Positions 2,109 to 31,825 of a stretch of 38,166 bases of DNA are shown here, piece after piece. This stretch comes from a virus: the IMG/VR virus record IMGVR_UViG_3300014039_000009, positions 1 through 38,166 of that record. One strand, 5' to 3'. The number at the start of each line of letters is the position of its first letter. Position 1 is the first letter of the stretch. A model generated the notes under the pieces. That model made no database searches, was not told where the DNA came from, and saw nothing but the letters and a program-made list of their open reading frames with translations. The translations under genes were made by a program, and so were the position numbers.

Positions 2109-2791
2109 TACCTGCAAATATTGCAGTTCCTTTCGTAAAAAAACATCACTATAGCGGTAAAGTTGTCCCTAATAGCCAGCTCCATTTTGGAGCATTTCTT
2201 GACGGCAAACTTCATGGCGTCATGTCTTATGGTCCAAGCCTAAACAAAAAAGGGACAATTAACCTTGTTAAAGATACTGGCTGGAATGAATTCTTAGAAT
2301 TAAACAGGATGGCGTTTGATGATTATCTTCCTCGAAACTCAGAGAGCAGATGCATTTCTCAAAGTATAAAATTAATCAAAAAAAATGCGCCCCAAATCAA
2401 ATGGCTTATTTCTTTTGCAGATGGTTGTAGTTGTGGAGACGGAACTATTTACAGGGCGAGTAATTTCGTTCTAACAGATATAAGAGAGAATGATTCTTTG
2501 TTAATAGACCCTCAGACAGGCGAAAAGATTCATCATATTTCTTGTTGGCATAAGGGCATCAGAGATTTATCTAAGTTTAAACCCTTAAAAGGTTATCAAC
2601 TCAGATATGTCTATTTTATTGACAAATCCTACAGACAAAAATTAACAGTTCCTGAAATTCCTTTTTCTAGAATTGACGAGCTAGGTGCAGGCATGTACAA
2701 AGGCGAAAGAGTAACAGTCGAAGAACGACACGAACAAGGAAAGCTCACACTTGAAGAGAAAAACGAAACTAAAGAGGAATCTGAAACTTGA
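2075..2791 (+). CDS. Mom-like GNAT-fold acyltransferase (candidate DNA adenine-modification enzyme)
   Basis: The motif order FVKKHHYSGK ... FLELNRMA ... PRNSESRCISQSIKLI ... ISFAD ... GTIYRASNF matches my recollection of the Mom family. It overlaps the ParB-like gene by 34 nt. Confidence 0.6.
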   Translation: MGRAKEIVVKVIPANIAVPFVKKHHYSGKVVPNSQLHFGAFLDGKLHGVMSYGPSLNKKGTINLVKDTGWNEFLELNRMAFDDYLPRNSESRCISQSIKLIKKNAPQIKWLISFADGCSCGDGTIYRASNFVLTDIRENDSLLIDPQTGEKIHHISCWHKGIRDLSKFKPLKGYQLRYVYFIDKSYRQKLTVPEIPFSRIDELGAGMYKGERVTVEERHEQGKLTLEEKNETKEESET

Positions 2792-3234
2792 GCAAAAACT
2801 CCGCCTATCCCGAATTAAATAAAGCATCTTTCGAAACTCTTCTCCGATTACAATTCACACGAGAAGAGGTTCTTGTTTTTTTTGGGAAATCAAAAACGAG
2901 TCTAATCGAATGGGTTAAGAAAGAATATGAAGGAAGAACCTTTGAAGATGTCAAGCAAATGTGCACAATGCAGACACAAGTTAGATTGAAATCGACCGCT
3001 TTAAAAATGTCAGAAAAGAATCCTGCTGTTATGATTTTCCTTTTGAAATCAATTTGCCGAATGACAGAAGAAACTCCAGTACAGAAAGAGAACAACGATA
3101 AGAATGTTATATCTTTCACAAACTCAATCAAGATTGCAACTAAGGCTCTAGCCTCAACAGATAATAGCCCTTATATCGCGGGGCTACCAGAAAAGACAAA
3201 TAACAACGATAACGAAAATCAAGACCATGAATAA
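2788..3234 (+). CDS. terS: Terminase small subunit
   Basis: TTGA overlap with the upstream gene and position just before terL. It has an HTH-like N-terminus and the NPAVMIFLLKS motif typical of TerS. Confidence 0.7.
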   Translation: MSKNSAYPELNKASFETLLRLQFTREEVLVFFGKSKTSLIEWVKKEYEGRTFEDVKQMCTMQTQVRLKSTALKMSEKNPAVMIFLLKSICRMTEETPVQKENNDKNVISFTNSIKIATKALASTDNSPYIAGLPEKTNNNDNENQDHE

Positions 3235-4552
3235 AAAGACTCCCAAAAAGCATACTCGTCAAATAATGCAAATTCCTGAATGGAAATTCTCCCCGAGGCA
3301 GTTAATTTCTATGTATTGGTGGACAGACCCTCGATATAGTTATTGCGCTGGCATCATAGCAGACGGAGCAGTAAGAAGTGGAAAGACAGTTGCTCTATCT
3401 TTTGGCTTTTTGATTTGGTCTATGTCAAATTTTAATAACCAAAATTTCGCAATGTGCGGTAAAACCATTCAATCTTTTAATCGTAACGTCTTAACTGGCA
3501 TGGCGAAGATGTGTTTTTCTCTCGGGCTTTATATTCAGCATTACAAGTCCGAGAATTTGGTTGTAATTTGGAACTCAGACAGGAGTGTTGTTAATAGCTA
3601 TTATATTTTCGGTGGTAAAGATGAAGGCTCACAAGATTTAATTCAGGGCATCACTCTTGCAGGCTTACTATTAGACGAGGTCACTCTCATGCCAGAGAGT
3701 TTCGTTAATCAGGCTTTGGCTAGATGTTCTGTCACAAATGCTAAGGTATGGATGAATTGCAATCCCGAGGGCAATCAGCATTACATCAAGCGTCGATTCA
3801 TCGATAACTATAACAAGCTTCAATTTTTATACATGCATTTCACAATGAATGACAATTTCACACTATCTCCCGAGCGCCGAGAATATTACGATAGGCAATA
3901 TACAGGCTTATTCTATCGACGATATATCCTCGGAGAATGGTGTCTAGCCAGTGGCTTGGTTATGTCTTCTTTCAATCCTGATACAATGATTTACAACGAG
4001 GACGACCCCGAAGAGAGTTACACCGTTTCTTTTTCTGCAGGTGACTATGGCACAACGAATCCGACAGCTTTCTTGTGGTTAAGCTATAATGCAGAGAGAG
4101 ATTGCTTTGATGTTAGAGACGAGTTTTATTATGCCTCTCGACAGACAGAAATCCAAAAGAGTGACATTGAATATTGCGAGATGCTTATAGAATGGGTAAG
4201 AGGCAAGAGCATACAGAGAGCCTATGTTGACCCGTCGGCAGCATCTTTTGCAGTTGCTTTAAAACAAGCTCATGTTTTTAACAGGCTTGAAAAGGCAAAT
4301 AACGATGTTTTAGATGGCATACGTTGGACGAACTCTCTATTTGCCCTTGGATTATTGAGAGTTAATCGAAAATGCAAGAATCTAATTCGAGAACTTGGAG
4401 TTTACTCATGGGACGACGAAAAGAGTGAAAAGAGTGGAGAAGATTGTGTTATTAAGATTGATGACCATGCTGTAGATGCCTTGAGATATGCTTGTATGAC
4501 TGAAATTTATGGACGAAAGACACAGTATGGGCTGAAGCATATAGGCTTGTGA
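3227..4552 (+). CDS. terL: Terminase large subunit
   Basis: Walker A GAVRSGKT, Walker B LLLDEV, and C-terminal nuclease motif DDHAVDALRY. Confidence 0.95.
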   Translation: MNKKTPKKHTRQIMQIPEWKFSPRQLISMYWWTDPRYSYCAGIIADGAVRSGKTVALSFGFLIWSMSNFNNQNFAMCGKTIQSFNRNVLTGMAKMCFSLGLYIQHYKSENLVVIWNSDRSVVNSYYIFGGKDEGSQDLIQGITLAGLLLDEVTLMPESFVNQALARCSVTNAKVWMNCNPEGNQHYIKRRFIDNYNKLQFLYMHFTMNDNFTLSPERREYYDRQYTGLFYRRYILGEWCLASGLVMSSFNPDTMIYNEDDPEESYTVSFSAGDYGTTNPTAFLWLSYNAERDCFDVRDEFYYASRQTEIQKSDIEYCEMLIEWVRGKSIQRAYVDPSAASFAVALKQAHVFNRLEKANNDVLDGIRWTNSLFALGLLRVNRKCKNLIRELGVYSWDDEKSEKSGEDCVIKIDDHAVDALRYACMTEIYGRKTQYGLKHIGL

Positions 4553-6032: not shown

Positions 6033-7163
6033 ATGTTAACGCCAACCGATTTTAGAGAAATAGAAAGTGAAGTTTCACGAATTTATTCTGATATCGAGAC
6101 AGATTTAGTTAGAGCAATCTGTCGATATGTTGCCAAACACGAAGGCGATATCTCTATCGAAGAATGGCGAGCAAAAAAAAATATCGGTTGGTCTTCTTTT
6201 AAGCTTAATCTTGAAAAGATAGCATCAGTCGACTCTAAAAAAATATCAAAACAAATAGATACCCTCGTTGAAAAGGTTATCAATAAAAACAATGCGTCCG
6301 ACCAAAAAATAATAAAAGCAATACATGAATACAAGAAAGATTCAGAGCAAGAAGTAAAAATTGAACCTACACAAATTCAAAAAGAAAAAATTCGTGCAAT
6401 TATCGAAAATGCAAAGAATGGCATCAATCTGACAAATACAAGAGCAATTACAAATTCTCAAAGAATATTTGAGAGTGCAGTTAATAGAGCATACATAGAA
6501 GTCTTTGAGGGAAATCAAACCTTATCAAATGCAGTTGCAAAAGCTACGAAACAATTAGCAAGAGAAGGAATTACTGTTGCCAATTATAGCACATCTGGAA
6601 GACCTTATCAAATGTCAATAGATGCAGTTGTTAGAAGGAATGTTGTAACATCTGTTGCTCAGGCAACCTCTCAAATGACCTTAGAGACGGCTCAACAGAA
6701 TAATTGCGATTTGGTTAAAACCTCGGCACACCTTGGAGCAAGACCTGAGCATTATTTATGGCAGGGTAAAGTTTTTTCGATCTCGGGCACGAGTGATAAA
6801 TATCCTTATCTTTCAGACCCTCAAGAATCAGGAGGGACAGGTTATGGTACAGTGGATGGGCTATGTGGTTGCAATTGTAGGCATTTTTTCTTTCCTTACG
6901 TCGAAGGCTTTAATCCTGCATCTTATGGCATAGAAGATGCTACAGCATCAGAGAATGAAGAGATTTATCAAGCTACCCAAAAACAAAGATATTTAGAACG
7001 AGAGGTTCGTTCATGGAAAAGAGTGTTAAAAGTGTCACAAGACCAAAAAAACGCAAACGATATAAATACTGCGAATTTAAAAATTCAGGAATACGAAAGC
7101 AGAATAAAATTGCTTACAACTAAGTATGGAATCCCTCGACAGAAAGAGAGAGAGGAAGTTTGA
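6033..7163 (+). CDS. Minor head / head-morphogenesis protein (SPP1 gp7 / Mu F-like)
   Basis: Position after the portal gene and the motif GLCGCNCRHFFFPY typical of this family. Confidence 0.8.
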   Translation: MLTPTDFREIESEVSRIYSDIETDLVRAICRYVAKHEGDISIEEWRAKKNIGWSSFKLNLEKIASVDSKKISKQIDTLVEKVINKNNASDQKIIKAIHEYKKDSEQEVKIEPTQIQKEKIRAIIENAKNGINLTNTRAITNSQRIFESAVNRAYIEVFEGNQTLSNAVAKATKQLAREGITVANYSTSGRPYQMSIDAVVRRNVVTSVAQATSQMTLETAQQNNCDLVKTSAHLGARPEHYLWQGKVFSISGTSDKYPYLSDPQESGGTGYGTVDGLCGCNCRHFFFPYVEGFNPASYGIEDATASENEEIYQATQKQRYLEREVRSWKRVLKVSQDQKNANDINTANLKIQEYESRIKLLTTKYGIPRQKEREEV

Positions 7164-7925: not shown

Positions 7926-8840
7926 ATGGCTAATTCAATCGCTTCTGTTCAGGAATATTTGAATTCGATTATTGAACAGACTTATAGAATGGCATCTCTT
8001 ACAACATTCCTTGATACTCAGGGAGTTGAAGTTAATGCCTTTGCAAATGCAAAAACTGTTAATGTTCCAAAACTCGTTCTTGAGGGCCTCTCTGATTATA
8101 ATAGGTCCTCTGGCTACACATCAGGTGATGCTACTCTTACTTATGTGCCTTATACTCTCACAAAGGATAGAGGCAAGAAATTCATGCTCGATGCTGTAGA
8201 TAATATCGAATCTGCTGGCGTTGCTCTTGCAAATCTTGCTTCAACATTCCTTCGTGATTACGTTGTTCCAGAACTCGATGCTTATAGATTCTCTCAGTAT
8301 GTAGATGGTGCAGACTCTGGACAGGTAAAAGCTCAGGCTCTTACTAAATCTAATATTATCGGAGCTATTGATGATGCAAGCTCTGCTCTCACAGATGCCG
8401 AAGTGCCACAGGAGAATAGAATTCTCTTTGTTTCTTCTGCTACAAAGGCTCTCATGATGCAGGCTATGGATTCTTCAAGATTCCATACATCAACAGTTAT
8501 TAATAGAAATATTACAATGTTTGATGATATGCCTCTCGTTGTTGTTCCTTCTGGTCGTTTTTATGACGCCGTAACTCTTAAGACAACAGGTTGGGGGCCT
8601 CGTGAAGCAAGTGGTGCAGGAGTATCTCCAGCAGTTGCAGCAGCAGTTGGTCTTAACTTTATTATGATGGATAGAACAGCACCTCTACAAATTGTAAAGC
8701 ACAACCCTGCAAGAATCTTTTCTCCTGACCAAAATCAGGATGCTGATGCTTGGGTTTACAATTATCGCTGTTATCATGATGCAATCATCAGGAAGAACAA
8801 AGCTAAGGGTGTTTACGTCCACAAGAAGGCTTCAGCTTGA
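7926..8840 (+). CDS. Major capsid protein
   Basis: 304 aa, follows the scaffold gene, strong RBS. Confidence 0.8.
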   Translation: MANSIASVQEYLNSIIEQTYRMASLTTFLDTQGVEVNAFANAKTVNVPKLVLEGLSDYNRSSGYTSGDATLTYVPYTLTKDRGKKFMLDAVDNIESAGVALANLASTFLRDYVVPELDAYRFSQYVDGADSGQVKAQALTKSNIIGAIDDASSALTDAEVPQENRILFVSSATKALMMQAMDSSRFHTSTVINRNITMFDDMPLVVVPSGRFYDAVTLKTTGWGPREASGAGVSPAVAAAVGLNFIMMDRTAPLQIVKHNPARIFSPDQNQDADAWVYNYRCYHDAIIRKNKAKGVYVHKKASA

Positions 8841-8893
8841 TAATGTTTGATTTGTCGAAGTTAAGAGAGAGATAAAAAGGAAAATAGAAAAAC

Positions 8894-9346
8894 ATGGCTT
8901 ATTTGTCATACGAAGAATATAAAGAATTATCACTCGTGCCAGATGAAAAGAGATTATCTGAATCTTTATTCGAGGCTTTCGAAATCTATGCAGAGGTCGT
9001 TATTAACAGTTTTACTTTTGATGCAATCGAAAAATATAATCTGTTGAACGATGAATATTATGCACCGAAGGTTAAGAAGGCTGTAGCTTATCAAATAGAC
9101 TATATGAACGATGAAGAAAACAACTCGGATTCTTCTCTTTCAACTTTTACAAAAGAGGGGGAGAAGGTTATATCTTCGCACTCTGTTACAGTCGGCGAAA
9201 CAAGTGAATCAATTTCGTATGACAATAGTGCCATTAATTCAAACGGCAACAGCATAGAAAATAGAGCAAGTGGTGGTCTTAAGGTTTCTCCTCTTGCTGT
9301 TCCAATTCTTGCAAAAGTCCGAGCATTAGGCAGGGGGATTAGATGA
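8894..9346 (+). CDS. Head-tail connector/adaptor
   Basis: First gene after the capsid gene; call based on gene order. Confidence 0.55.
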   Translation: MAYLSYEEYKELSLVPDEKRLSESLFEAFEIYAEVVINSFTFDAIEKYNLLNDEYYAPKVKKAVAYQIDYMNDEENNSDSSLSTFTKEGEKVISSHSVTVGETSESISYDNSAINSNGNSIENRASGGLKVSPLAVPILAKVRALGRGIR

Positions 9347-26936: not shown

Positions 26937-27313
26937 AAATAATATACAATATTAAATGTAGATAAAAGTTTTTGTTCATTTCTAAAAGCAAACTCCTTAT
27001 TTAAAGATTATTTGTCCCTCGATGTTTTTATCTTCCTTTGGTTTCATCGGGGGGCATCTTTTTGTGTATAAAATGTGTAAACACAAAAGCAAGATTTCTT
27101 TTGCTCTATATAAAAATCAAAAATATATCTTTTATTCACAAAACAATGCTTTTGCTGTTTATAAAAAGGATGGCACAGACTTCACACGGCAATGCCTTTA
27201 TCGGGCTATTTCTATATAATATAAATATTTATAAAAAGTCATGCTGTTTATTTGTGTATGTTTTTGTGTATGAATCACTTGTTTTATCAAAAAAACAGGC
27301 TTAATCTATTTTT

Positions 27314-28516
27314 ATGAAAATCAGTGAAAAATTATATAAGTTGCATTTTTTTAAAAATCGCAACATTGAAGCCGTGTTCTCTCATATGCCATACAAAAGA
27401 GTTTCGACAGGAACAAAGGATATAACAGAGGCTGTTCTTTTTTGTGAGAATTTTCTAAAGAATGAAGGAATCCTCGGCGATAAGATTCCTTTATTTTCTG
27501 AATTTGCAAAAGATTTTTACACAAGAAGAGATTATGACTCTATCTATGCAAGAGATAAAGCATTCGGTAGAGAGAAAAGAGAAAACTGGTATATAGATAT
27601 GCAAAGAAATTTAGATAAGTATCTAATGCCAAGATTCAAAGATTATCCGATTGATTCCGTAAAACCTCTAAACATAGAAACATGGTTAATAGGACTACAG
27701 GAAATTGGTGCATGTTCTAAAAGAAAAATTCTCAATACTCTTAGAGTTATTCTCGATGATGCAATAAGAAAAGATTATATAAAAATAAATCCTGCAAGAA
27801 CTGTGAAGCCTCCAACAGAAAAAAGAGCTCAAAAAGAAAGACGAGCTTTTTCTTTTTATGAATTAGACGAATTATTCCCTAAAGATGCCAACAAAAGAAT
27901 CAAGATATGGGAAAATTTGATGTATGCAACATATTTTTCAATCATGTTTGATACAGGATTTAGACCCTGTGAAATTTCAGGCTTATTTGTTGGCAATGTC
28001 TATTCTACACCTCAAGGATTGGCAGTTTATACAACACACACATATAACACAGAATTGGGAAAAATCGTCGAAAGGGTAAAAACATCAGGCAAGGGCATGG
28101 AATCAAGGGTTGGTCTTTTATCTGATTTAACAAAAAAACTAGTTATTATGTATTTGGACGAAATAAAAACAACAGAGGAAAGAGAACCTCTCTTTTTAAA
28201 AAACAGAGCAAATAAAAACAGTATATTCACTCCACGGCTTGCAAATAAGAATTTTAAAAGAATATGCAAAAAATATAATATCGAAAATGTTACACAATAT
28301 GCTCTTCGTCATACCTTTACAACATATAGAAGAGGGAATGTAAACGAAAATGCCCTTGCAATTGCAATGGGACATACAAACGGTGTTAGAGATGATTATG
28401 ACCACAGAACAGCATCTATATTAATTGCACAGCTAGAGCAGGAAAGAGGAAAGATGTTCTCAGAAGAAGCACAGGATAAAGGTATTACACCTTTACTAGA
28501 AAAAAAACATGGATAA
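27314..28516 (+). CDS. int: Tyrosine recombinase / phage integrase
   Basis: Motifs DTGFRPCE, ALRHTFTTY and GHTNGVRDDYDHR supply the Arg, His-x-x-Arg and Tyr signature. Confidence 0.93.
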   Translation: MKISEKLYKLHFFKNRNIEAVFSHMPYKRVSTGTKDITEAVLFCENFLKNEGILGDKIPLFSEFAKDFYTRRDYDSIYARDKAFGREKRENWYIDMQRNLDKYLMPRFKDYPIDSVKPLNIETWLIGLQEIGACSKRKILNTLRVILDDAIRKDYIKINPARTVKPPTEKRAQKERRAFSFYELDELFPKDANKRIKIWENLMYATYFSIMFDTGFRPCEISGLFVGNVYSTPQGLAVYTTHTYNTELGKIVERVKTSGKGMESRVGLLSDLTKKLVIMYLDEIKTTEEREPLFLKNRANKNSIFTPRLANKNFKRICKKYNIENVTQYALRHTFTTYRRGNVNENALAIAMGHTNGVRDDYDHRTASILIAQLEQERGKMFSEEAQDKGITPLLEKKHG

Positions 28517-28522
28517 AAAAAT

Positions 28523-28542
28523 GAGAGGGTCGATGCCCTCTC
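28523..28542. terminator. Hairpin between convergent int and minus-strand genes
   Basis: gagaggg-tcgatg-ccctctc, followed by ttt. Confidence 0.6.
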
Positions 28543-28544
28543 TT

Positions 28545-28733
28545 TCAGTCTCTACTCCAAATCATAAAGCCTTTTTTCAATGTCCTGATATCTTCTCTTT
28601 GAGCGTCAATGTAACGCTGAACCCTTTCAGGCTCATTTGTCCACTCCAGCTCTTTTCTTAAAAGTTGGATATAGTGGCGAGCCTGTATAATTAACTCGCC
28701 TGCAACATGTTTATTTACCTTTTTTACTATCAT
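28545..28733 (-). CDS. Hypothetical 62-aa protein
   Basis: The internal Met (MIVKKVNKH...) is preceded by GAGGAA. The longer track ORF would overlap the upstream gene by 113 nt. Confidence 0.55.
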   Translation of the reverse strand: MIVKKVNKHVAGELIIQARHYIQLLRKELEWTNEPERVQRYIDAQREDIRTLKKGFMIWSRD

Positions 28734-29022
28734 CTTTTTCCTCTTCTTCGTCCCATGCAACAACATAACCTTTATATCTAAACTCGTCTGCCAAATTGCA
28801 AGCAACAGCAATAAGGTTGGCAAATTTTAGAGCCTTTGAAGAATTTACAGCTCCCAAACTCTCGAAACGAATATCGAGGCGAGCGCCATCAGCTTCTTTA
28901 TAATCGTCAAACACGACAGTATATTTGCTAAAGCCAAAATGCCTACAGGCTTCAGCTAGATTATTTTGAGCCATTTTAACCGACCTTCTAAACCTATCAA
29001 TTTTTACTATCTTCTTATCCAT
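28711..29022 (-). CDS. Hypothetical 103-aa protein with an acidic tail
   Basis: AAGGAG RBS and its own promoter block upstream. Confidence 0.65.
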   Translation of the reverse strand: MDKKIVKIDRFRRSVKMAQNNLAEACRHFGFSKYTVVFDDYKEADGARLDIRFESLGAVNSSKALKFANLIAVACNLADEFRYKGYVVAWDEEEEKDDSKKGK

Positions 29023-29030
29023 CTTTTCTA

Positions 29031-29063
29031 TCTCCTTATTTACATATATAATATTATATATTT
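29031..29063 (-). promoter_or_regulatory. Promoter/5'UTR block, copy A
   Basis: In sense orientation it reads aaatatataatattatatatg-taaataaggaga and abuts the ATG at 29022. Confidence 0.55.
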
Positions 29064-29103
29064 CAAAAAGAGTCTAGCAATTTGTTATAAAAGAACGAAT
29101 TAT

Positions 29104-29133
29104 TAAAAAAATAAGCCATTTTAATTATGGCTT
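29104..29133 (-). terminator. Minus-strand terminator overlapping the stop codon of the RHH gene
   Basis: aagccat/atggctt stem, followed by atttttttaa on the minus strand. Confidence 0.6.
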
Positions 29134-29298
29134 ATTCATTTGTTGCTTAATCCAAGCATTGAGAGAGATTCCTTCTTCTCCTGCCTTTTTTTTGGCATGA
29201 TAATAAATATCATGCTCCTCGGGAGCAAAGGTTAGATTGAATTGAATCAACCTTTGCAAGTTCTTCTGTTGAGCTCTTTTCAGGGCTTCTGACCTCAT
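29125..29298 (-). CDS. Ribbon-helix-helix (CopG/Arc-like) protein, 57 aa
   Basis: Start at MRSEAL... is preceded by GAGGAG and forms an ATGA overlap with the upstream gene. The IQFNLTF strand is followed by two helices. Confidence 0.6.
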   Translation of the reverse strand: MRSEALKRAQQKNLQRLIQFNLTFAPEEHDIYYHAKKKAGEEGISLNAWIKQQMNKP

Positions 29299-29498
29299 AG
29301 TATCTCTCCTCTTGCGATTCTCTCGCAATCCTTTTTTGAGGTAATTAGATTTACCTCTAGACCTTTTTGGGGTTTTACGCCGTCAAAAGTGTTGTTGATG
29401 ACGTTTTTTACCGAGAGCCAACGATTTACGTAGGCTCTATCAAGGTGGTATCTGTTTCGATACCATGCTCTAACTTTTTTAATCTCTTTACCTGTCAT
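29295..29498 (-). CDS. Small basic hypothetical protein (67 aa)
   Basis: GAGGAG RBS; 6 nt after the acidic-protein gene. Confidence 0.6.
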   Translation of the reverse strand: MTGKEIKKVRAWYRNRYHLDRAYVNRWLSVKNVINNTFDGVKPQKGLEVNLITSKKDCERIARGEIL

Positions 29499-29504
29499 TT
29501 TTTC

Positions 29505-30131
29505 TTACTCCTCGTCGTAGTCGTAATCCATGTCGCCTAAATCGACATCGCAAGCATTCCAGTCTGCAAAGAATCCGTCCTCAAATTCTATGCGACCTTC
29601 GCCTTCATATGGTTTGACATTAAACCATTTTCTGAATTCGAGAATTTTCCCGTCTTTTACAATCTGTAAAAAGCTATCCTCTCTATAACCGCCATTTTTA
29701 ATAATGGCGTCAGCCTCTCGTTCTGCCTCCACTAAAGACTTAGCATTGAGTTTTGCTTCATCATATAAGCAATCATAAAGATGAAATTTCCCGTCTTTGA
29801 TGATTGTTACTGAATCAGGCTTTGATAGTTCGAGAGTGATATCGTAATCCTCTGATACAGCTATCTCTTTCAGATGCTCTTCATCATCAACTGAAAAATA
29901 CTCTTCTTTAATAAGATTAAACTCTTCATCAGAGAGTTCTCGCTTAACAGCCTTAATGACTGTTTCGTGCTTGTCAGATGAGCATAATCTTTCCCACATA
30001 GAACAAGCCTCTATGCCAGCATCTTCGGCACTCTTGCAGAGAACTGTCCAAGAGCCCTCAGACTTAAATTCTTTACCAAAAATTCCGTCTCTCCAAAATC
30101 CTGATTCCTTTAAAACTCCAAATAATTCCAT
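29505..30131 (-). CDS. Strongly acidic 208-aa hypothetical protein
   Basis: AAAGGAG RBS. Very high D/E content, and the protein ends DMDYDYDEE. Confidence 0.75.
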   Translation of the reverse strand: MELFGVLKESGFWRDGIFGKEFKSEGSWTVLCKSAEDAGIEACSMWERLCSSDKHETVIKAVKRELSDEEFNLIKEEYFSVDDEEHLKEIAVSEDYDITLELSKPDSVTIIKDGKFHLYDCLYDEAKLNAKSLVEAEREADAIIKNGGYREDSFLQIVKDGKILEFRKWFNVKPYEGEGRIEFEDGFFADWNACDVDLGDMDYDYDEE

Positions 30132-30180
30132 ATTTTTCTCCTTTATTAAATTTAGAGGGCTAGGCTATAGCCCTCCTATT

Positions 30181-30483
30181 TTAAAATTCAAATGTCCCAG
30201 CTTTCTTGTAAATCTTAGAGACATTTTGCTCAGTCAAGAAAGCAGTGAATCTCTTGTCAGCTTCTTCTCTGTTAGAAGCATGGAAGCTTTCACAGAGAAC
30301 CTGTTTTCCCCATTTATGAAGAAGATATTTACCTTCTTCATAGTCCTCTTTCTTGCTAGTTTCGATGTAGAATTCGGACTTATTGTCCTCTTTCATGTAC
30401 ATTGAAAATGACACACGGGGGAACATATTGTTTGGATATGCTTCACAATATGCAACTAAATAATCATCATGTATGTTTAACAT
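30181..30483 (-). CDS. Hypothetical 100-aa protein
   Basis: AAGGAG RBS and its own promoter block upstream. Confidence 0.7.
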   Translation of the reverse strand: MLNIHDDYLVAYCEAYPNNMFPRVSFSMYMKEDNKSEFYIETSKKEDYEEGKYLLHKWGKQVLCESFHASNREEADKRFTAFLTEQNVSKIYKKAGTFEF

Positions 30484-30490
30484 CTCTTTT

Positions 30491-30524
30491 TCTCCTTATT
30501 TATACATATATAATATTATATATT
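30491..30524 (-). promoter_or_regulatory. Promoter/5'UTR block, copy B
   Basis: Same block as copy A with a 2-nt insertion; it abuts the ATG at 30483. Confidence 0.55.
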
Positions 30525-30582
30525 TAATATTTTGTCTACTCTTATCGGAAAAAATCAGACATTTTTTCTTAATTTTTTATGA

Positions 30583-31062
30583 TTACCAGTTCGTCGGCTT
30601 ACTGTTTAATGCTTGCTCTAAAGATAATGCAGTGGCAATTCTATCAGCTTCATAAAGATTTAAAGCATTCTCTGTGAGAGGAGATGATGAATAGTCGTAG
30701 CTATCCTTGATTGAGGTCGGATTAGATATAGTCAATCTAACTTTGCCGTCTTTCGTCTCAACTGTAATAATGCTCTCGATAATCATTGATGTTAAGCCTT
30801 GTGCAACTTCTGTTGTATATTTTCCTTTCAAAAGTCCCGATTGTTTATCACTAATTTCTAAGACCGATTTTGAGTCTTTAAAGCTATCAACAAACCAAGA
30901 TGCAGCAGAAACAAACAGTTCGTCTTTTGTTTTGTTCTCAACTGTAATAATTTGCGAGAAAGACGAAATATCATCTTTGTAGATAGTTGCACATGATGTG
31001 CATAGAGTTACAATTGCAAAAACGATTAACAATAAATACAATACGGATTTTTTCATTTTCAT
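30583..31062 (-). CDS. Lipoprotein (DUF4468-like pattern)
   Basis: Signal peptide plus LCTSC lipobox. The mature part resembles the pattern KDELF..A..WF...F......L...D...G.L.GK. Confidence 0.8.
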   Translation of the reverse strand: MKMKKSVLYLLLIVFAIVTLCTSCATIYKDDISSFSQIITVENKTKDELFVSAASWFVDSFKDSKSVLEISDKQSGLLKGKYTTEVAQGLTSMIIESIITVETKDGKVRLTISNPTSIKDSYDYSSSPLTENALNLYEADRIATALSLEQALNSKPTNW

Positions 31063-31065
31063 TTT

Positions 31066-31100
31066 CTCTCCTTAATAATCCTATATATATATTATATAGA
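31066..31100 (-). promoter_or_regulatory. Promoter/5'UTR block, copy C (diverged)
   Basis: Shares the ctatataatatat core and AAGGAGA with copies A and B; lies upstream of the lipoprotein gene. Confidence 0.45.
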
Positions 31101-31129: not shown

Positions 31130-31501
31130 TCAACTAATTTTGTTTTTATTTTTATTTTCTGTCTTCTCAAAGCTCTCTATAACAAGGGATAGAGCCTCCA
31201 AAAGATGCTCATCCCTCATAATGGCTCTAATCAGAGCTCTTGCTTGTGGATTTGTTCTCACATATTCAACTTCAGGAGAGTTGCAGAATGATTCTCTTCC
31301 CGTTAATAAGTAATTCACATCTGTATGCAAATAATCAGCAATTCTTATTAAATCTTCTATATTTGGTAACCGATTTTCACTCCGATTGTCTCTTATTCGA
31401 TTGTATTTCAGATTTAAATCTTTACATATCTGAGTGACAGTCAGATTTCCTTTCTTTTCATCGACTCTTTGCCAAAATTCATATCCTAAATTTTCATTCA
31501 T
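31130..31501 (-). CDS. CI-like XRE-family HTH repressor (123 aa, no S24 peptidase domain)
   Basis: I start it at MNENLGYEFW (ATG at 31501). The HTH is TVTQICKDLNLKYNRIRD...IEDLIRIADYLHTDVNYLLTG. The upstream part of the track ORF runs through the operator region. Confidence 0.8.
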   Translation of the reverse strand: MNENLGYEFWQRVDEKKGNLTVTQICKDLNLKYNRIRDNRSENRLPNIEDLIRIADYLHTDVNYLLTGRESFCNSPEVEYVRTNPQARALIRAIMRDEHLLEALSLVIESFEKTENKNKNKIS

Positions 31502-31526: not shown

Positions 31527-31559
31527 AAAAATGCTACAAAAATGTAACAAAAATGTAGC
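31527..31559. promoter_or_regulatory. Three tandem 11-bp direct repeats (candidate operators)
   Basis: aaaaatgctac / aaaaatgtaac / aaaaatgtagc, located between the divergent repressor and Cro-like genes. The outer gctaca/tgtagc pair forms an inverted repeat. Confidence 0.6.
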
Positions 31560-31639: not shown

Positions 31640-31825
31640 ATGAAGGATTACACAGGGCAGTTGAGGACAAGAATTACTCCTGCCGAGTATAAAGCCTTCA
31701 AGGCTCTTGCTAGAGAGCATGGCATGACAATTACTGGCTATATTGATGCCATAATTCGTCAGGAATTAAGCAAGAAACAATGTGTTTCTTGTAATGATTT
31801 TAGAAGGAACTCAGTCTCAGAGTAG
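31640..31825 (+). CDS. RHH protein in the Cro position
   Basis: GGAGG RBS. QLRTRITPAEYKAFKALAREHGMTITGYIDAIIRQEL is an Arc/CopG-type fold pattern. Confidence 0.65.
   Translation: MKDYTGQLRTRITPAEYKAFKALAREHGMTITGYIDAIIRQELSKKQCVSCNDFRRNSVSE

Follow-up and report, generated by a model that had tools for sequence, protein, structure and literature searches.

Arc, encoded in the immI region of phage P22, is a small ribbon–helix–helix (RHH) protein that silences Pant, the strong promoter from which its own operon is transcribed, by binding an operator located within that promoter. Aca14 from Pasteurella multocida is an RHH protein of 66 residues encoded in anti-CRISPR operons, where an AT-rich inverted repeat—TGTATATGTAAGCATATACA, as given in the supplement—covers the −10 element of its own promoter and that of the next downstream operon, and both operons have been demonstrated to be repressed by this protein in gel shifts and reporters (bioRxiv 10.64898/2026.07.27.740549). 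In the acr–aca operons with helix–turn–helix (HTH) regulators (Aca1–Aca13), a strong promoter with a core inverted repeat is followed by variable small cargo genes and by a conserved regulator at the 3' end, a layout that underlies guilt-by-association searches (PMC9410906, PMC6765145). The interval between the integrase gene (int) and the repressor gene is also known to hold morons, exemplified by the exclusion lipoprotein Ltp of Streptococcus phage TP-J34 (PMC3952083). Here, this interval is described in IMG/VR virus record IMGVR_UViG_3300014039_000009 (the window, which is the whole stretch of 38,166 bp that was analysed), where two nearly identical promoter blocks, A and B, precede two small operons, units 3 and 2, respectively, and a 57-residue RHH protein is encoded at the end of unit 2. 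The best reading of this locus, by analogy, is that its circuit works like that of Aca14, with no claim of family membership. We put at roughly 0.55 the probability that blocks A and B are two copies of an RHH-autorepressed regulatory cassette controlling two cargo operons.

Direct terminal repeats are present in the window, a complete virus record in which plus-strand structural and lysis-like genes are followed by a non-coding stretch, by int on the plus strand and by a run of minus-strand genes (28545-31062). Beyond this run lie the gene for a CI-like repressor, also on the minus strand, and the divergent early genes, the first of which encodes another RHH protein in the cro position. The seven genes of the minus-strand run are located where the first-pass annotation had placed them. 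Related loci were gathered by integrase alignment searches and exact-protein look-ups (integrase and RHH), which resulted in about 20 related phage contigs, referred to below by L numbers.

Both blocks are read from the minus strand. Block B (30491..30538), ahead of unit 2, holds a −35 element TAGACA (30533-30538), a 17-nt spacer, a −10 element TATTAT (30510-30515), an 18-nt palindrome (30506-30523), and a short leader with the Shine–Dalgarno (SD) sequence AAGGAGA; it reaches a promoter scan score of 10/12, and it is identical in L084-L087, L018, L076-L079, and L083. Block A (29031..29080), ahead of unit 3, holds a −35 element TAGACT (29071-29076), a 17-nt spacer, a −10 element TATTAT (29048-29053), the palindrome (29044-29061), and an SD sequence, with TTGCTA-16-TATAAT as an alternative promoter reading. 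The core of both blocks is the perfect 18-nt palindrome ATATATAATATTATATAT, whose downstream half contains the −10, and a leader of approximately 20 nt with a strong SD sequence comes after it. The −10 was also sought in the left-half TATAAT, a candidate that was dropped because its spacing to the conserved −35 is only 12 nt.

The 21-mer AAATATATAATATTATATATG occurs exactly twice in the window (29043-29063 and 30505-30525), with 0 matches in window shuffles, and both blocks continue with TAAATAAGGAGA after a TA indel. The first-pass annotation had described a near-identical block of ~33 nt ahead of two units; the duplication and the TA indel are real, but the length was underestimated. As the similarity continues upstream as far as a TAGAC conserved at a fixed distance, forming a 36-nt direct repeat (29041-29076 and 30503-30538), the repeated unit is the whole promoter, spanning ~50 nt from the −35 (TAGACA/TAGACT) through the ribosome-binding site (RBS). 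A generic host signal would have undermined the annotation, but the block is not one. The exact 21-mer has 11 scattered matches in 185,579 species genomes, none of them from a spirochaete, and 4 in IMG/VR; the downstream half plus leader has 16 scattered matches in the same genomes, again none in a spirochaete; and a 25-mer of the block, allowing ≤3 mismatches, is found in 3 of 301 Spirochaetia genomes versus 2 control matches, which is the control level. A generic host promoter consensus is ruled out by these scattered non-spirochaete matches and by the control-level count in Spirochaetia. In viral and metagenome collections, block-like matches fall in related phage contigs (L005/L070, L039-L042, L047, L074, L050, L068, and L073), the other matches being unrelated chance hits to the AT-rich pattern.

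The proposed repressor of blocks A and B is the product of gene 2d (29125..29298, minus strand), a protein of 57 residues. Its AlphaFold2 model (mean predicted local distance difference test score, pLDDT, 86.7) begins with a helix at the N-terminus, continues through an extended segment into two further helices, and ends right after helix 2, and almost all its fold matches are RHH proteins—Arc (probability 0.93), NikA, CopG, and RHH antitoxins. The best sequence match in the PDB is likewise Arc, aligned on the QFNL strand with 37% identity over 38 columns. The gene is always the last one of unit 2, as found in 13 loci, while the genes ahead of it vary (F8, F9, F10, F11, F12, or none; F numbers denote cargo families). 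A profile search of the family against 1.84 billion representatives retrieved 79 clusters at E ≤ 0.001, mostly of 55–75 residues. An alignment search for the RHH protein across genome contigs gave no matches. The dyad-symmetric site over the −10 and the RHH gene that closes unit 2 were both missed in the first-pass annotation, and together they point to a putative self-repressed Aca-type circuit rather than to plain constitutive morons.

The comparative data carry the case for an operator, since a lone 18-nt palindrome is unremarkable in DNA of this AT-rich composition. In the L035 clade, the site reads ATATATACTAGTATATAT in both copies, behind a perfect TTGACA at 17 nt, and it is still a perfect palindrome because the A-to-C substitution has its symmetric counterpart in a T-to-G substitution. 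In L021, TTGACA is followed by the palindrome TGTATATCGGTATACA over the −10, twice; L020 holds the palindrome TATATATCGATATATA three times, and L109 holds ATATATACCGATATATAT. In these three contigs each palindrome overlaps the −10 and each first operon closes with a homologue of gene 2d. The duplication of the palindrome is kept in L018, L076, L078, L084-L086, L035, L021, and L020, and its position on the −10 is the same in L035, L021, and L020. The predicted DNA-reading strand of the RHH protein differs in step with the palindrome centre: strand IQFNLTF accompanies the centre AATATT, IQFNLSF accompanies ACTAGT, VEIQFSP accompanies TCGA, and VEITFTP accompanies TCGG. Significance of the palindrome by itself was considered and dropped, as a length of 18 nt is reached in 51 of 200 shuffles.

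One of these relatives suggests a broader reach of the regulator. L020 (a contig of GCA_963621035.1; regions 2622-3845 and 8001-9107) holds two integrase genes, and its three copies of the palindrome promoter are found at two separate places. As the RHH gene is located ~4 kb from the third palindrome site, one regulator may serve accessory operons at more than one hotspot in this contig.

The locus resembles that of Aca14 in several respects. In both cases the operon is made up of small variable genes and includes one for a small RHH protein whose N-terminus is extended by a helix, and the palindrome of the window overlaps the −10 of the operon of the RHH gene itself, with an identical copy ahead of unit 3; in L021, moreover, the arms of the repeat (TGTATA/TATACA) equal those of the Aca14 repeat. 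The RHH protein of L021 is 29% identical to Aca14 over 55 residues (E 4e-5), while the one of the window aligns pairwise with E 0.47. The profile of the RHH family scores 30.3 bits against Aca14 (hhalign probability 94%). Specific membership in the Aca14 family is not claimed, given that RHH controls from the PDB score similarly when the family is represented by another, closely similar profile (alignment A6): 35 bits for AvtR, 26 for ParG, and 25 for Arc. The window differs from the Aca14 system in that its operons lack a known acr gene and in that its host is probably a gut spirochaete, not a member of the Pasteurellaceae. It shares with the HTH-type acr–aca operons the strong promoter with a core inverted repeat, the conserved regulator at the 3' end, and the variable small cargo upstream of it, and it differs from them in having an RHH instead of an HTH regulator and uncharacterised cargo.

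Arc is the closest solved structure and sequence to the RHH protein of the window. However, Arc is encoded first in its operon, ahead of the antirepressor gene ant, while the RHH gene of the window is the last of unit 2; no counterpart of the antirepressor or of Mnt was seen in the window, and Arc has no N-terminal helix. With the int–repressor morons such as Ltp, the locus shares the position, the autonomous promoters and terminators of units 2 and 3, the patchy distribution, and the lipoprotein gene directly after the repressor gene, which is also the arrangement of TP-J34 (PMC3952083). Nevertheless, units 2 and 3 carry an operator-like site and their own putative regulator, and the lipoprotein of the window, which holds a DUF4468 domain, is not a homologue of Ltp.

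According to the proposed mechanism, the RHH protein from the end of unit 2 would bind the 18-nt dyad-symmetric operator that holds the −10 of a sigma-70-type promoter, and would thus repress its own operon (unit 2) and the one located immediately downstream (unit 3). Upon infection, both operons would fire strongly until the accumulating RHH protein brings them down to a low steady level, at which they would stay in the lysogen. The idea of the first-pass annotation that these genes are lysogeny-expressed may still apply, because negative autoregulation predicts low expression in the prophage together with an early burst during infection.

The cargo of both units is exchanged between relatives behind conserved promoter blocks. 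In unit 2 of the window (all genes on the minus strand), gene 2a (30181..30483, 100 residues, family F9, no family match in databases) occupies a variable first slot, and it is followed by gene 2b (29505..30131, 208 residues, F1), gene 2c (29295..29498, 67 residues, basic, F2, no family match), and gene 2d, whose start overlaps the stop of 2c as ATGA, indicative of translational coupling. Unit 3 comprises gene 3a (28711..29022, 103 residues, F7, no family match), which is the variable slot, and gene 3b (28545..28733, 62 residues, basic and helical, F4), which overlaps 3a by 23 nt and is the constant last gene, found in 9 relatives. Unit 2 ends in an intrinsic terminator on the minus strand (29109..29137), an 11-bp stem followed by a T-run (−12.5 kcal/mol, z −4.05), and a second hairpin (28523..28542; −12.8 kcal/mol, z −3.5) is common to unit 3 and the convergent int. 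The hairpin and T-run found at both places bear out the annotation that these two units have their own terminators.

Read from the repressor gene towards int, with lengths in residues in brackets, the window, L084, and L086 hold the lipoprotein gene, a unit 2 with F9 (100), F1 (208), F2, and RHH, and a unit 3 with F7 (103) and F4 (62). L085 and L087 hold the lipoprotein gene, F1 (208), F2, and RHH, with no F9, and then F7 (103) and F4 (62). After the lipoprotein gene, L076 carries F8 (139), F1 (83), F2, and RHH in unit 2, and F6 (79) and F4 in unit 3; L077 carries F8, F10 (84), F1 (108), F2, and RHH, with neither a unit 3 nor a second block; L078 carries F1 (212), F2, and RHH, and then F6 and F4; and L018 carries F11 (95), F1 (106), F12, and RHH, and then F13 (85), F7, and F4, so that F13 is an extra gene ahead of the homologue of 3a. 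In L035, a membrane protein of 174 residues substitutes for the lipoprotein, unit 2 is reduced to F1 (117) and RHH, and unit 3 to F15 (148). Gene 2a is therefore present in the window, L084, and L086, missing from L085, L087, and L078, and replaced by F8 in L076 and L077 and by F11 in L018. Gene 2c, present in most close relatives, is substituted by F12 in L018 and absent in L035, while 3a is swapped for F6 in L076, L078, L079, L082, and L019. A block stands ahead of every unit, and the second block is missing wherever unit 3 is missing. Little apart from the blocks can still be aligned with the DNA of L035 (38 nt at 94.7%), whose integrase is only 44% identical.

The homology that the window shares with its relatives is lost at 30487-30491, which is the 3' end of the SD sequence of block B, and again at 29026, just past the SD sequence of block A, to resume at 28744, ahead of the constant gene 3b. 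The indel of gene 2a falls exactly between two copies of AATAA(A)GGAGAAAAA, and it lies between the SD sequence of the intercistronic junction and that of block B. This junction element (30140..30180, minus strand) is a GC-rich hairpin with TTTAATAAAGGAGA behind it, and its fold reaches −15.5 kcal/mol (z −2.35). An element of ~45 nt of this kind is found behind every variable cargo gene of unit 2 in the window, L076 (4485-4570), L077 (twice, 2983-3068 and 3300-3385), L018 (10735-10830), and L084, and its stem shows compensatory changes (GGAGGGCTA/TAGCCCTC versus GGAGAGCTA/TAGCTCTC). It supplies a homology arm for gene exchange, and it may stabilise or partition the mRNA. The left arm of recombination would be the conserved block, and the right arm either the conserved hairpin-plus-SD junction element or the constant last gene. 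Modular exchange of cargo, with homology arms that can be named, is thus well supported by the alignments. This agrees with the first-pass annotation, which had proposed a duplicated promoter–RBS cassette in front of unrelated cargo and had suggested comparing genomes for swapped units: the ~20 related contigs keep the block, the genes behind it are exchanged, and the breakpoints lie exactly at the 3' end of the block.

Paralogy and promoter sharing extend beyond these loci. Gene 3a has distant paralogues in F11 of L018 (10827-11114) and in an 89-residue protein of L073 (467-736), with a common C-terminal motif F(K/R)Y-(K/R/S)-(G/D)Y-V-W, and each of them is the first gene behind a block-type promoter. 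The short contigs L073, L068, and L050, which come from one metagenome (OQWM01), have the same −35, −10, and leader (TTGACA-17-TATTAT, ATGTATAAATAAGGAGA), here ahead of replication-type operons that encode a nuclease-ATPase, an SNF2-type helicase, and a DNA methyltransferase. These phage contigs are unrelated in other respects, so that the range of the promoter–leader module is wider than the int-to-repressor interval.

Several observations weigh against the RHH-autorepressed cassette. A perfect 18-nt palindrome is not rare in AT-rich DNA, as the shuffles mentioned above indicate, and part of its symmetry may stem from promoter composition, because the TATATAA directly upstream of the −10 recurs at other promoters of this phage. 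The co-variation between strand and palindrome centre relies on only 4–5 classes. The promoters of L073, L068, and L050 keep the −35, the −10, and the leader but break the symmetry, with no RHH gene on these short contigs, and L111 has a palindrome promoter with no RHH gene within the 10 kb examined. By sequence, Aca14 is not detectably nearer to the RHH protein of the window than Arc or AvtR are. Finally, no anti-CRISPR, anti-defence, or defence family was found among the cargo of the window and 10 cargo proteins of relatives in Pfam, NCBIfam, PHROG, and PADLOC. Chance palindromes of this length, the asymmetric promoters, and L111 would be expected if the blocks were a plain constitutive promoter plus RBS, duplicated and copied along with the cassettes, with prophage-expressed morons (involved, for instance, in exclusion) behind it and a palindrome that is no operator. 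The units' own promoters and terminators, their variable presence among relatives, and the lipoprotein at the position of Ltp in TP-J34 (PMC3952083) fit this account as well. We nonetheless regard it as unlikely, since it does not predict that, in the L035 clade, both copies are still perfect palindromes after a symmetric double change, that palindromes of unrelated sequence are located at the equivalent promoter position in L021, L020, and L109 along with diverged RHH proteins, or that the RHH gene always closes unit 2. Both accounts overlap, given that expression in the prophage may be low even if the RHH protein represses.

The palindrome could also be the operator of another protein, be it the CI-like repressor, the cro-position RHH protein, or a host factor, in which case units 2 and 3 would be early-left operons tied to the switch. 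In lambdoid phages, genes to the left of the repressor gene belong to an early operon controlled by the repressor, and the cro-position protein of the window (31640-31825, divergent from the CI-like repressor gene) is itself an RHH protein; furthermore, CTATATAATATA from the left half of the palindrome recurs at the promoter predicted on the cro side (PR), upstream of int, and in the AT-rich stretch ahead of the lipoprotein gene (copy C). Such control appears improbable, however: the two repeats TACATTTTTGT of the switch region are located only at 31536-31557 and are absent from blocks A and B, the strand of the cro-position RHH protein hardly differs between the window (LRTRITP) and L021 (FRTRLTK) despite their differing palindromes, and neither unit is present in relatives whose switch is built in the same way. 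An RHH protein with a palindromic operator on its promoter is, in turn, the classic form of autoregulation in type II toxin–antitoxin systems, and the coupled or overlapping small genes (the ATGA of 2c-2d and the 23 nt of 3a-3b) together with a weak HicB-type Pfam match on the RHH helix (E 0.003, under the family cut-off) would suit toxin–antitoxin or abortive-infection modules in which the RHH protein is the autoregulating antitoxin of 2c and 3a-3b form a second pair. This we hold to be very improbable, as the modelled RHH protein has no C-terminal toxin-binding extension, in L018, L035, and L021 the RHH gene persists without its would-be partner 2c, which is swapped or missing, 3a is exchanged for unrelated genes ahead of a constant 3b, and there are zero matches to toxin, antitoxin, or PADLOC families.

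Among the cargo of the window and its relatives, the only family matches in Pfam, NCBIfam, PHROG, and PADLOC are the DUF4468 lipoprotein and one DUF7698 protein in L020. Some of these proteins are strongly acidic, including 2b (pI 4.4, net charge −27), F8 (pI 4.05), and F10 (pI 4.56). Gene 2b encodes a conserved acidic N-terminal domain, found in 11 relatives in proteins of 78–212 residues, followed by a variable C-terminus; its structure model is confident only for residues 1–104, which correspond to the conserved domain, and fold searches against the PDB and viral models gave only uncharacterised proteins, with no informative neighbour. A homologue search with 2b brought back its own cluster alone, owing to the length filter applied. 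An anti-defence role is the leading guess for the cargo, tentatively held, because the layout would work as in Aca-type anti-defence operons, notably those with the RHH regulator Aca14; an anti-defence function would, we guess, suit genes that are small, orphan, acidic, and rapidly exchanged behind a promoter that limits itself. More doubtful is a further extension, in which the palindrome promoter would mark, in the phages of gut spirochaetes, a phage-wide regulon whose members are new anti-defence proteins, comprising at least 15 orphan families—with the acidic 2b/F1, F8, and F10 as possible DNA mimics—that would turn over as cassettes between the promoter/SD block and the hairpin-plus-SD junction with no dedicated recombinase.

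The type of circuit has already been published for Aca14, and the gain is in breadth and detail, not in principle. What is new is a further Aca14-like pair of accessory operons under probable RHH control, with a natural series of putative operator and regulator variants and with cassette junctions resolved to the base. To our knowledge, almost nothing is known about the conflict between phages and hosts in uncultured gut spirochaetes, and, if the circuit works as proposed, the palindrome-plus-promoter block would be a cheap marker for accessory, possibly anti-defence, genes in their phages. The natural variants (4–5 operator classes plus diverged RHH strands) constitute a specificity series for DNA reading by small RHH proteins, and the exact breakpoints at the RBS and at the intercistronic hairpin show, base by base, the exchange of single genes inside an operon.

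Unit 1 differs in kind from units 2 and 3, having neither the block nor a terminator. It consists of the gene for a lipoprotein of 159 residues (30583..31062, minus strand) with the lipobox LCTSC and a DUF4468 domain (Pfam E 3e-10; PHROG 4002, E 2e-18), which is still found directly after the repressor gene in L111 and L112, where units 2 and 3 are absent. The first-pass annotation had counted three self-contained moron units; units 2 and 3, with their own promoters and terminators, are such, but only these two, because neither the hairpin scan nor RNA folds revealed a convincing terminator for unit 1. The annotation had likewise attributed the core of the blocks to copy C (31066..31100, minus strand), an AT-rich stretch ahead of the lipoprotein gene. 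The resemblance of copy C to blocks A and B is limited to the decamer TATATAATAT and to TAAGGAGA, with the SD sequence, and by eye copy C has no good −35; it is a weak promoter-like stretch and a much weaker relative of A and B.

The decamer TATATAATAT itself has 8 matches at 6 sites of the window (27213, 29045, 30507, 31098 on the minus strand, 31577, and 33869) versus 0.22 expected, all of them in predicted regulatory DNA: upstream of int, in blocks A and B, in copy C, at PR, and in the gap before a RecT-like gene. It looks like a general feature of the regulatory DNA of this phage, and it could be a promoter-proximal consensus of the phage or its host, or RHH half-sites. In L111, an integrated prophage with host genes to the left of int, a stretch of ~235 nt without a credible gene (within 6063-6385) separates the DUF4468 lipoprotein gene from the palindrome promoter; it holds two TTGACA boxes and two terminator-like hairpins, and it could be a decayed RHH unit or encode small RNAs.

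The tyrosine integrase (27314..28516, plus strand, 400 residues; Pfam Phage_integrase; PHROG 1, E 1e-29) is convergent with the units, and the CI-like HTH repressor gene (31130..31501, minus strand, 123 residues) matches PHROG families of transcriptional regulators and repressors (best E 8e-9). In named genomes, relatives of the integrase are found mostly in gut spirochaete bins, the closest being a metagenome-assembled genome (MAG) of Sphaerochaetaceae (60% identity), followed by Spirochaetales, Ornithospirochaeta, and Spirochaetaceae, while near-identical phages come from human-gut metagenomes. Based on the binning of the genomes that carry these integrase relatives, the host of the phage is probably a gut spirochaete. 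Searches of GenBank phages by blastn and tblastn gave zero matches, no integrated copy of the phage was found in the genome collection, and Rfam and tRNA scans of the region returned nothing. L109 (1533-2777) holds a reverse transcriptase gene (RVT_1) beside a DUF6273 tail-region gene, which could be a diversity-generating retroelement. Lastly, a palindrome-like site, ATATACAATATTAAATGT, with 3 mismatches relative to the core of the blocks, is kept in the window (26942-26959), L018 (7632-7649), and L019 (2399-2416), where the non-coding region that precedes int begins; this region is the candidate for attP.

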